37,960 nucleotides of DNA from IMG/VR virus record IMGVR_UViG_2522572021_000015; one strand, written 5' to 3'. This document shows positions 30,001-33,000 of this stretch, piece by piece. Position numbers: made by a program. Position 1 is the stretch's first letter. Each line of letters opens with the position of its first letter. This DNA is from a virus (taxonomy: Duplodnaviria > Heunggongvirae > Uroviricota > Caudoviricetes).

Positions 30001-33000
30001 CAAGAAATGAAAAAAGGCCACGCAGTTGCGCAGCCTGATAAACCCTGGTTAAAATCCACACGATAACAACACAACAATATCAGTATCTCATGCTATTGCC
30101 CGAACCCATTCGGGCATTTTTTACCCATAAAACATGCCCCTCCGGAGAGGGGCATGTTTGCATGCACATTCTTTTTCTTGCATGGTGCCGGGTGCCTCCC
30201 GGTGAATTCAGTATCAGCACCTGAATCCGCGATTATCACATATACCTGGTTGCTGATTGCCCCTCCGCACAGGGGGATTCACCATGCAGTAGTATTTTTA
30301 ATAAACAGTAAACAAAAAAATCAAGCATTATGCAGGCTGTTTCTTTTTATCACCGGCCACAGCAATACCACAATGCCGCAGACCAGAGCGCCATCAGTCA
30401 GTACCAACATTATCCTGCTGGTGAAATCCATCATCACCATCACTAAAAGCAGGATCACAACAGCAAGCAGACACAGTTTATAAAACAATGTTCAGAAAAC
30501 GCATTCAGCATGCCTAAGGTTCTATTCCTACGAATAGCCAACTTGCAACTTAAAATATTATTTATGCAGCCAATTAAATTCTGGTCCTTACAATATCAAC
30601 CTGAAGATTCTTATCTTGTGCTGATTGATAAATCACAAACCTTTTACTACCTGCATTGAAAGAAGTAGACAAAACCAGACAATTATCATAACGAGCAAGA
30701 ACATAATACCAACCATCATTATAATTAATCATTTCATATTCTTTCTTAAACTGCGGTTTGTAATATCCTGTCAGAAATGAAAAAAGCCAGAAATATGCCA
30801 CAAAAGCAATCATCACAATCTCAAAAAAATGTTTTTTTATAAATGGCTTATCATAGAAGCATGATACCGATAAAAATCGCCCATAAGATCTTATCGAAAT
30901 TGTGACCGCCAGCGCAATCGCTGCTGACAGTAGCAAAAGAGGTACCTGAATCTTCTGTCTCAATATAGAAAACTCAATAATTGCCGGCACAAACAATAAT
31001 TCCACAGCAAAATAAAGGCGAAATACATTTAGCTCTTGCATAGAATGTTTTCTTTTCACTGCGAAAAAGAATACAACACCAATACCCCAACCGATAAGAA
31101 ATATAGCAATGACGATAACTGCAAAAAATAAACTTCTGGCAACATCATCAACACCTGCACCTACAATCCACCATGGGAAGCCGTAGTAAAAAGAAGTACC
31201 CCATCCATAGAAATAAGCACTCCCCCATCCAAGGCATCCCATGTAGGCAATAAAAAGTGAAGAACTCCTGAGCAGCGCACCATCCTTCATAACCACCCCA
31301 ATACAAGATGATAACATTGGCTTACAACTCATAACAAAAGCAATTCAATGCCGTCAAGAGGTTACAGGCTAAAAAAACTCTATTACATTGCAGTCAGCAT
31401 GTTTACTACACAAATACAATTCAGAGCATAAAAACTACTCGGCGGCAGGTTATTGAGACTCATCAATGACATGTAAAAAACGCCCATTATTGGTGTCAAG
31501 TTTCCCCAAAGTTATTCAAAAAGTCAATATTATGCCGTTAATATGTTGCCATCCGTGGCAATCATGGCGCTAACGTGTGATCGCATTCAAAATGTTGTCT
31601 GCGATTGACTCTTCCTTGTGGCATTGCACAACCAGAGCGTCATACAGCGGCTTAACAGTGCGTGACCAGGTGGGTTGGGTAAGGTTTGGGATTAGCATCG
31701 TCACAGCGCGATATGCGGCGCTTGCTGGCATTCTTGAATAACCGACGCCTTTACATCTTCCGCACTCTTTCTCAGCAACTATCCCCCACTGCTCTGTTTT
31801 GGCTATATCAACCGCACGGCCTGTACCGTGGCAATCTCTGCATCTTGCGCCCGGCGTAGCGGCACTACGGCAATAATCCGCATAAGCGAATGTTGCGAGC
31901 ACTTGCAGTACCTTTGCCTTAGTATTTCCTTCAAGCTTTGCCACGCCACGGTATTTCCCCGATACCTTGTGTGCAAATTGCATCAGATAGTTGATAGCCT
32001 TTTGTTTGTCGTTCTGGCTGAGTTCGTGCTTACCACAGAATACAGCCATTCCGAATCCGGCTTGTGATTGCGCCATCCCCATAGCAGCCATCACATCAGT
32101 ACCGGAAAGAGAGTCAGAAGCCGTGGCCCGTGGTGAGTCGCTCATCATCGGGCTTTTTGGCGAATGAAATTTAGCTACGCTTTCGAGTCTCATGCGCCTT
32201 CTCCCTGTACCTGAATCAATGTGAGGTTTCCGCAGAACACTGCGCCAGTATCGATATACATCTGGTTGGCAAATTTGAGTGGTTTCACTGCTGGCGTATG
32301 ACCAAAGATGAACGTGTCCGCGCCTTTGATTTCTTTCACGATCCCGTCTTGTGAGTTGCTGATTCGTTCGCGGTTCCAGATTACCTGCTGATGATCAACT
32401 GGCTTTCCAAACTCGTATTTATCACAAGGATAATCGGCGTGGCAGATGACATATTTTTTTCCTTTACTCACCAGTTCGATGATTAACGGAAGTTCATCTG
32501 CTTTATGGGCAAGAGCTTTAGCCAGAATTTCTTTGTCGTAATCGAGATTAAAGAACCAGCCACCGCCATTAAGCAGCCAGTGATTGACGTTTCCACGCTC
32601 TGATAAGCCATCAATCATCATTTGCTCATGGTTTCCACGTACAGCTCTGAACCAGGGGAATGTGATTAATTCCAGGCATTCTACGTTCTCTGTACCGCGA
32701 TCAACCAAATCGCCCACCGAGATAAGCAGGTCTTTTTTGGTGTCGAATCCTATCGTCTCCAGTTTTTTCATCAGGTTCGTGTAGCATCCGTGCAGATCGC
32801 CAACTACCCAAATATTTCGGTATTTGCTGCCATCAATTCTTTCGTAGATATTCATGCAACCTCACTTCTGCTGTTTCGCAGTTTTTTAAGTTTCTGTTGA
32901 TACTCCGCCTTGATGGCCCTGCACTCTTCGACAGTCCAGCGATAGCGGTTATGGTTTGATTCGATTTCCTCTACTGCTTCCTGCCCGATGCGGCTAATCA

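Follow-up and report, generated by a model that had tools for sequence, protein, structure and literature searches.

The stretch of DNA analyzed here (the window) comprises 37,960 nucleotides (nt) from the IMG/VR virus record IMGVR_UViG_2522572021_000015 (Caudoviricetes) and is an ssrA-integrated lambdoid prophage of the type of Sp17 in Escherichia coli Sakai; the element in question is the AT-rich gene that follows the antiterminator gene Q in its late region. This gene is very probably an autonomous moron in the late operon, coding for a 238-residue inner-membrane protein of the PF27470/STM1630 family. We propose, at somewhat better than even odds, that it has a promoter of its own, that the terminator separating it from the late promoter pR' has been lost, and that it would be transcribed in the lysogen and boosted by Q upon induction. 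The role that we favor for its product, a lysogen-expressed, superinfection-exclusion-type gatekeeper of the envelope, is a committed guess that we hold tentatively, and for the explanation as a whole (identity, regulation and function taken together) we estimate a probability of about 0.4. Morons in the Q-proximal slot are an ordinary kind of element; what is unsolved is the protein family. The features on which the argument turns are as follows.

30574..31290, minus strand: tfpB/STM1630-family gene (238 codons plus stop), defined by its conserved start, PHROG 1521, PF27470, the ratio of nonsynonymous to synonymous substitution rates (dN/dS) and the AlphaFold2 (AF2) model
30574..31332, minus strand: open reading frame (ORF) from the first ATG (252 codons), from the ORF scan of the window
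31328..31358, minus strand: cassette-borne sigma-70-like promoter motif (-35 TTGACG at 31357-31352, TG at 31336-31335, -10 TATGAG at 31333-31328)
31430..31451, minus strand: degenerate remnant of a Q82-type tR' terminator hairpin, aligned to the annotated terminator of phage 434 and to E. albertii
31499..31527, minus strand: lambda-type late promoter pR' (TTGACT-17-GAAACT), aligned to the annotated promoter of phage mEp234
31501-31521, minus strand: qut/Q-binding element, aligned to the annotated qut of phage mEp234
31570..32193, minus strand: lambda-type antiterminator Q, 207 residues (PF03589, E=4e-58)

Homology searches returned more than 100 homologues of the gene in Enterobacteriaceae, distributed over at least eight genera (among E. 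coli, Shigella, Citrobacter, Cronobacter, Klebsiella, Enterobacter, Salmonella and Yersinia), and nearly all of the full-length ones are 236-238 residues long. Their alignment places the family-conserved start at the ATG at 31290, which equals M15 of the 252-codon ORF, so that the protein described in a preliminary description of this DNA as a 252-residue polytopic membrane protein is indeed polytopic (see the AF2 model below) but has a length of 238 residues. Two other starts were considered and rejected: the ATG at 31332-31330, as a start or as an upstream ORF, lies inside the invariant promoter-like motif, is directly followed by TAA in three lineages and opens frames that vary, and the RefSeq start at 31317 receives no backing from conservation. 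Nei-Gojobori estimates of dN/dS, which range from 0.05 to 0.2 in unsaturated comparisons, are 0.05 against the E. albertii copy (dS 0.26), 0.09 against an Escherichia sp. copy, 0.05-0.07 among the Salmonella subspecies copies and 0.17-0.22 among copies of the avian pathogenic E. coli (APEC) type. The ORF is a real gene, kept by strong purifying selection. Its GC content is 0.37 (minimum 0.29), compared with about 0.5-0.57 in the flanking Q and esterase genes, in agreement with its earlier designation as AT-rich.

The family had not been recognized in the preliminary description, but it is catalogued (as PF27470/TfpB, RefSeq 'STM1630 family', PHROG 1521 and Sakai ECs_3500), yet uncharacterized, and the sequence itself is already present in databases and in phage 434. 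The profile phrog_1521 ('unknown function') matches residues 31-252 of the 252-residue ORF with E=2.1e-154, and every homologue, including the 100%-identical cluster P0001, carries a precomputed PF27470 ('TfpB') assignment. The counterpart in Sakai Sp17 is ECs_3500, annotated 'membrane protein'; the RefSeq label on a family fragment is 'STM1630 family protein'; and the protein is identical in amino acid sequence (100%) to CPT_434_68 of phage 434 ('putative membrane protein', OL657226) and 97.9% identical to a 'Phage protein' of phage 2B8. Other profile searches contributed little: a direct Pfam scan of the protein with a library that lacks the PF27470 model gave no match, the NCBIfam scan gave no significant match (CrgA, at E=0.46, was taken as noise), all PHROG matches were of 'unknown function', and a Pfam scan of all 43 aligned members gave scattered, weak, single-member matches only (DUF4131, bPH_10 and others). 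A profile search against the sequences in the PDB gave one match, at E=1.9.

The distribution of the family is broad in bacteria and narrow in sequenced phages. Copies are found in 1,197 of 5,426 complete E. coli genomes (~22%), often as two per genome, and in three of 50,697 sequenced phage records (the phages named are 434 and 2B8). An exhaustive profile search of 1.84 billion representative sequences recovered 73 clusters, reaching as far as Pasteurellaceae and Neisseria and all labeled 'hypothetical'; a search for related loci with a narrow alignment recovered six loci only. Literature searches on WP_001302581, PF27470 and 434B found nothing, and queries with TfpB and TciB were drowned in unrelated acronyms. 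An ORF in the type IV pilin inversion region of Moraxella bears the name tfpB, and the Pfam name may derive from it; no Moraxella members turned up in the family searches.

The structure of the protein was predicted with AF2 from a 43-sequence alignment (mean predicted local distance difference test score, pLDDT, 83; predicted template modeling score, pTM, 0.76), which replaced an earlier, poor run from 26 close relatives (pLDDT 57). The model contains helices at residues 6-36, 47-79, 88-111, 116-137 and 155-181 and, C-terminal to them, a barrel of five strands at 184-235, and the protein is thus predicted to consist of five transmembrane (TM) helices and a C-terminal SH3-like beta-barrel of ~55 residues. 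Together with the alignments, the model indicates that the architecture is kept throughout the family (~237 residues, with an aromatic/Gly N-terminal block, five TM helices and a C-terminal beta domain). Residue counts by the positive-inside rule, taken over the alignment, assign the N-terminus, loop 2 and loop 4 to the cytoplasm and loop 1 and the C-terminal barrel to the periplasm, a topology that we adopt provisionally. Conservation peaks in TM1 and loop 1, at the start of TM2, in TM5 and in the first barrel strands, and TM3 and TM4 are variable; TM1 together with the first periplasmic loop makes up an extremely conserved block rich in aromatic residues and Gly (SS..IAYMGCLGWGSAYFYGWGxSFYYGFPWW.VGAG.DD.ARSL). 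The wider family alignment has no conserved polar or catalytic residue, and the sole invariant column among the 43 sequences is a glycine, which disfavors an enzymatic role; the protein is more likely to be of a binding, blocking or pore type. Foldseek searches against the PDB and BFVD detected no significant fold relative, with weak matches that included MscS chains at very poor root-mean-square deviation (rmsd).

Upstream of the gene lies a motif, CTTGAC-N14-TTTGTTATG, that is invariant in seven lineages in which the spacer and flanks differ and the proteins are just 56-60% identical. It looks like the gene's own extended -10 sigma-70 promoter (TTGACG, 18 nt, TGtTATGAG), with a transcription start predicted at ~31321. 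The possibility that the motif is the Q-dependent pR' itself was rejected, because phage 434 and APEC O1 have a separate promoter (TTGCAA-17-TATAyT) and a terminator upstream of it, and a tool-called promoter, TTGTTA-18-TATCAT at 31337-31308, is confined to this lineage and so is at most secondary.

In phage 434, E. albertii and APEC O1, the end of Q is followed by the TTGCAA-17-TATAyT promoter, a strong U-run hairpin, ~75 nt, the invariant motif and the gene, and this 434/APEC O1-type layout insulates the gene from the late promoter unless Q acts. In the window, the hairpin is represented by a remnant with a 4-nt deletion and stem mutations relative to the 434/APEC O1-type terminators (compared at L007:3838-3863 and L021:4822-4841). 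Its folding energy is -4.6 kcal/mol (from an unrelated hairpin), compared with -13.3 kcal/mol in phage 434 and -11.2 kcal/mol in APEC O1; the terminator scan of the window did not call it and found no late-strand site until 30150. Phage 2B8 shares both the degenerate terminator and an identical lambda-Q junction. On the other side of the junction, Q is ~93% identical at the nucleotide level to Q of HK97, HK022 and the mEp phages, and the end of Q together with the next ~85 bases is ~93% identical to 115 lambda-type phages (HK97, HK022 and mEp included), a likeness that stops at ~31484. A lambda-like Q with the pR'/qut sequence conserved downstream of it, as previously described, is therefore well founded in both the profile match and the mEp234 annotation.

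The 434/APEC O1-type order (Q82-type promoter, strong terminator, cassette promoter, gene) would be the ancestral arrangement, and in the window and phage 2B8 a lambda-type Q-pR'-qut module would have recombined in, joined at the terminator and wrecked it. In the uninduced lysogen, the gene and the DUF3927 ORF that follows it would then be transcribed from the cassette promoter and probably also from the constitutive pR'; without Q, late-strand transcription would end at the hairpin of the STnc100 element, 1.35 kb downstream, and after induction transcription of the gene would be raised further by Q-modified polymerase. Expression in the lysogen is likely from the promoter-like motif and from the degenerate state of the terminator between pR' and the gene. 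The gene lies on the same strand as pR', which is ~200 nt upstream of its start codon, and so occupies the position of a late gene with respect to pR'/qut, but no proximal terminator lies between pR' and its start, so it departs from the lambda paradigm of Q readthrough. High-level switching on upon induction, as previously suggested, is in keeping with that position; as a full account of its control it conflicts with the motif, the degenerate terminator and the selected copies that have no Q nearby.

On the late strand after pR', the 3' hairpin of STnc100 (30150-30137) is the first site that resembles a terminator, and the scan found none between the stop codon of the gene (30574) and the DUF3927 ORF. 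The downstream interval, which had been described as hairpins followed by the esterase and lysis genes, is indeed followed by an esterase, a holin and a lysozyme, but the hairpins themselves are identifiable genes.

30321..30488, minus strand: DUF3927 ('TciB-like') small membrane-protein ORF, 52-55 residues (PF13064, E=1.4e-13; phrog_1470, E=2.7e-19; annotated in RefSeq and in phage 434)
30123..30313, minus strand: STnc100-family small RNA (sRNA) element (Rfam RF02076, 144.9 bits, E=4e-33)
30061..30122, plus strand: AgvB anti-GcvB sRNA, convergent with late transcription (Rfam RF02702, 96.5 bits, E=1.8e-18)
30015..30036, minus strand: second late-strand terminator-like hairpin, upstream of the esterase gene (9-bp stem with six GC pairs, T-run)
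28060..29913, minus strand: NanS-p-like esterase (Pfam DUF1737, SASA and DUF6645)
27695-28015: P21-type holin (PF04971), followed by a lysozyme

The STnc100 element begins 8 nt past the DUF3927 stop codon. Over the same region, phage 434 has CPT_434_70 ('putative membrane protein') and Sakai has ECs_3499 on the opposite strand; both annotations are probably spurious. The DUF3927 ORF accompanies the gene in the window and in phage 434 and is unlinked from the copies in APEC O1, on the enterotoxigenic E. coli (ETEC) plasmid, in the pap island and in Salmonella; in the yak isolate, the same late region has a DUF3927 gene behind a gene of the TerB family (L024:7301-7860). A Q-proximal moron slot with convergent sRNAs has been described for Sp17 and other Sakai prophages, as has AgvB for Sp10 and Sp17, and AgvB has been shown to aid growth in bovine rectal mucus (Tree et al. 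2014).

The gene occupies the first slot behind Q in three arrangements of Q and late promoter: the lambda type in the window, TR01/Sakai, O26:H11 and phage 2B8; the 434 type (annotated 'Q82-like') in phage 434, the dog isolate and O121; and a further, different Q protein in APEC O1, O22:H8, DG343-1 and the yak isolate. In the last group, tRNA genes or other morons come next after the gene and the lysis cassette after those, and APEC O1 has the same type of late promoter and terminator as phage 434 despite its different Q. The comparison with the position of stx in Stx phages holds up: the gene lies on the late strand after a lambda-like Q and pR'/qut, in the slot that elsewhere carries tRNAs and stxAB, and that in Sp5 holds stx2AB (Tree et al. 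2014). In O22:H8, the interval between Q and the lysis genes also contains a 142-residue 'TolA' fragment (L022:7765-8193) and a DNA methyltransferase, and in O26:H11 an Iss/Bor lipoprotein gene follows Rz (L028:7785-8078).

Outside prophages, family copies adjoin eltAB on the ETEC plasmid, follow papX at the ends of pap operons in extraintestinal pathogenic E. coli (ExPEC), and lie on plasmid contigs rich in Rep3 and insertion sequences (IS); pseudogene copies are found next to iroBC in Nissle and UTI89, together with a prophage-type tRNA-Arg. The virulence-island copies are at L017:5003-5896, L025:4003-4893, L018:2981-5708 and around 4000-5700 in L019 and L020. These contexts suggest that fragments of lambdoid late regions are embedded in the iro, eltAB and papX islands. 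The Salmonella copy, next to sseJ, keeps its synteny in the subspecies enterica, diarizonae and arizonae; core genes flank it, and the vicinity has no phage genes. The earlier suggestion that the gene was horizontally acquired is supported: it is AT-rich and horizontally mobile.

The moron concept reportedly goes back to Juhala and colleagues in 2000. Of its hallmarks, the gene displays a deviant base composition and absence from the same site in close relatives, the likeness to the 115 lambda-type Q/pR' phages ending at ~31484. It may also have a promoter of its own, to judge by the motif kept in seven diverged lineages and by the mapped transcription start of its orthologue STM1630. A terminator directly adjoining the gene, another hallmark, is missing.

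With high confidence, we regard the product as an inner-membrane protein without enzymatic activity that functions in the non-induced cell, because copies are intact and under selection far from Q and lysis genes, the family is nearly absent from sequenced virions, and the gene has its own promoter motif. As to what it does there, homology and fold evidence from the PADLOC and Foldseek searches does not separate superinfection exclusion, abortive infection and virulence, all of which had been put forward; entry blocking, host adaptation and orphan immunity are inseparable by computation, and among them we favor entry blocking, with host adaptation close behind. The favored gatekeeper would work on the periplasmic side of the lysogen's inner membrane and would block the entry of incoming macromolecules (chiefly superinfecting phage DNA, possibly colicins) by occupying or occluding an inner-membrane entry component, as do P22 SieA, T4 Imm and HK97 gp15. 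We favor entry blocking because small inner-membrane proteins of prophages most commonly serve this purpose, because the conserved surfaces are predicted to face the periplasm, and because the same slot in sister prophages holds envelope-directed morons (TolA-like, TerB, DUF3927, Iss).

Several observations weigh against this explanation. The -10 hexamer of the motif lacks the consensus final T; a literature search on ECs3500 found nothing; the C-terminal domain is placed in the periplasm by the positive-inside count alone, and the hydrophobicity of TM1 is weak; and the Salmonella orthologue is macrophage-induced and co-regulated with Salmonella pathogenicity island 2 (SPI-2), which fits host adaptation at least as well. 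A bolder version of the entry-blocking role is more doubtful again: that the family is a new, structurally unprecedented class of inner-membrane entry blocker (of phage DNA and/or colicin import), kept after Q and domesticated in Salmonella, on ETEC plasmids and in ExPEC islands, and that in O157 the loss of tR' wires the gene to the constitutive pR' and makes it one of the highest-expressed prophage genes of the lysogen.

The alternative that survives best, doubtful in its own right and kept close because of the Salmonella expression data, is that the gene encodes an envelope protein of host adaptation, acting by lysogenic conversion in stress or antimicrobial-peptide tolerance, adhesion or motility balance, in the manner of lambda Bor and Lom or of Iss, and with no anti-phage role. 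STM1630 has been reported to have its own transcription start and -10 box, to be up-regulated in macrophages and to cluster with SPI-2 genes in the transcriptomes of regulator mutants; it lies between the effector genes steB and sseJ, the E. coli copies adjoin eltAB, papX/pap and iro, and the window prophage itself also carries NleG and Lom. Nevertheless, deletion of STM1630 has no effect on intramacrophage replication, a marked deletion was hypermotile in a screen but was not among the mutants confirmed by scar-less deletion, and ST313 strains have a disrupted -10 box, and thus an inactivated promoter, without obvious cost. Adjacency to virulence loci may also only mirror shared AT-rich, H-NS-silenced, phage-derived DNA, as the prophage-type tRNA-Arg kept beside the iro-adjacent copy illustrates.

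Next, and unlikely, is an orphan immunity protein directed against a membrane-targeting toxin of competitors, such as a pore-forming colicin or microcin or an effector of contact-dependent inhibition (CDI) or of a type VI secretion system (T6SS). The protein is small, non-enzymatic and polytopic, is encoded by a single gene on mobile DNA, and is variable in the TM3-TM4 region and C-terminus around a conserved core; the neighboring DUF3927 ORF has the PHROG annotation 'TciB-like ... resistance to colicin', and TolA-like and TerB morons occur in the same slot. Set against these points, a cognate toxin gene was adjacent in none of ~20 contexts inspected, the profile scans revealed no likeness to known immunity families, and the low dN/dS throughout gives no hint of diversifying selection.

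A RexB-type role in abortive infection is improbable; in this reading the protein would be a membrane effector, held inactive in the lysogen until infection triggers it to depolarize the membrane via an oligomerizing, Gly/aromatic-rich TM1. It is prophage-borne with a TM1 of that composition, and MscS, which likewise combines a TM bundle with a beta-domain, is among the weak Foldseek matches; but those matches are not significant, a partner sensor gene (a RexA analogue) was seen in no context, the PADLOC scan returned no defense family at E<=1 and thus no profile likeness to a catalogued anti-phage defense protein, and Salmonella maintains the gene stably by itself on the chromosome.

Marginally less probable again is a late-phase, Q-controlled phage function, such as the modulation of lysis timing, of holin or spanin action or of particle release. 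The gene is co-oriented with and upstream of the late operon, between Q and the holin, would be readable by Q-modified polymerase, and is present in the viable phages 434 and 2B8. However, it lies 2.6 kb from the holin gene, with the esterase and sRNA genes between them, the ancestral arrangement has a strong terminator after pR' in addition to the motif, and no lysis-protein match (holin, antiholin or spanin) was found for the product in Pfam, NCBIfam or PHROG. The lysis-modulator role once suggested for it is unlikely because of the motif and the degenerate terminator, because copies without any lysis genes are under purifying selection, and because the family occurs in so few phage genomes.

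Lastly, the idea of a chance AT-rich frame or decaying pseudogene without function, which would have undone the preliminary description and for which the low GC content, the 'hypothetical' annotation and the truncated or frameshifted copies in Nissle, UTI89 and GmM077 might be cited, is excluded with near certainty by the conservation data (homologue lengths across genera, dN/dS, a confident AF2 model based on co-variation and the conserved upstream motif).

The remainder of the prophage provides the setting for the gene. Upstream of Q are genes for a NinI-type phosphatase and, upstream of ninG, an endonuclease:

33438-34085, minus strand: HNH endonuclease with AP2 DNA-binding domain (PF13392 and PF00847)

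The prophage border is marked by the ssrA transfer-messenger RNA (tmRNA) at 698-1060 (plus strand), followed by an ORF for an NleG-family type III secretion system (T3SS) effector at 1904-2824 (plus strand) and a gene for a Lom/Ail outer-membrane protein at 5714-6313 (minus strand); tail fiber and Dam genes are also present. The prophage is fuller than Sakai Sp17, keeping the tail and head genes that are lost there. Between the HNH endonuclease and the Dam methyltransferase, a 590-residue ORF on the opposite strand (34562-36334, plus) covers an AT-rich stretch and has no Pfam match; at the corresponding place, O26:H11 encodes a 'hypothetical protein' (L028:1-1733). Nearby, in an AT-rich intergenic region, is a hexanucleotide tandem repeat, (AAATAG) x 7.8 with 95% matches (34199-34245), which accounts for the 'LFLFLF' and 'SISISI' stretches of two mechanical ORFs that overlap each other.

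This compact family is under strong selection, lacks fold relatives in the PDB and BFVD, and is present in about a fifth of complete E. coli genomes and in a classic phage; solving the protein would explain a very common lysogenic-conversion gene of enterohemorrhagic E. coli (EHEC). The loss of the terminator and the apparent promoter of the gene itself also bear on the way in which Sp17-type prophages insulate the sRNAs STnc100 and AgvB and the downstream late genes.

Compared with known systems, the protein resembles P22 SieA, T4 Imm and HK97 gp15 in being prophage-borne, small, non-enzymatic, located in the inner membrane and likely made in the lysogen, and these serve as a working analogy only: no sequence, profile or fold similarity to them was detected, and T4 Imm and HK97 gp15 have one or two TM helices, whereas the window protein has five and a beta-barrel. 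As an element, it matches the morons of lambdoid phages (bor and lom of lambda, HK97 gp15, and stx2AB with AsxR in Sp5), being an insert of deviant composition in a late operon, apparently self-promoted and missing from the same site in close relatives; it differs in that its product belongs to none of the characterized moron families and that the first terminator comes not directly after the gene but past the DUF3927 ORF and STnc100. Salmonella STM1630 (SL1344_1560) is a member of the same family, with 46% identity over the full length and the same length and predicted architecture, but it is chromosomal and conserved in synteny away from phage genes, it has its own mapped promoter, and its expression groups with SPI-2, with no confirmed phenotype reported. 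The closest match is to phages 434 and 2B8, in which the gene is likewise followed by DUF3927/TciB, the STnc100 region, the SASA esterase (in 434) and the lysis genes; in phage 434, however, this cassette stands after a Q82-like antiterminator and an intact tR', whereas in the window it stands after a lambda-type Q/pR'/qut and a degenerate terminator.

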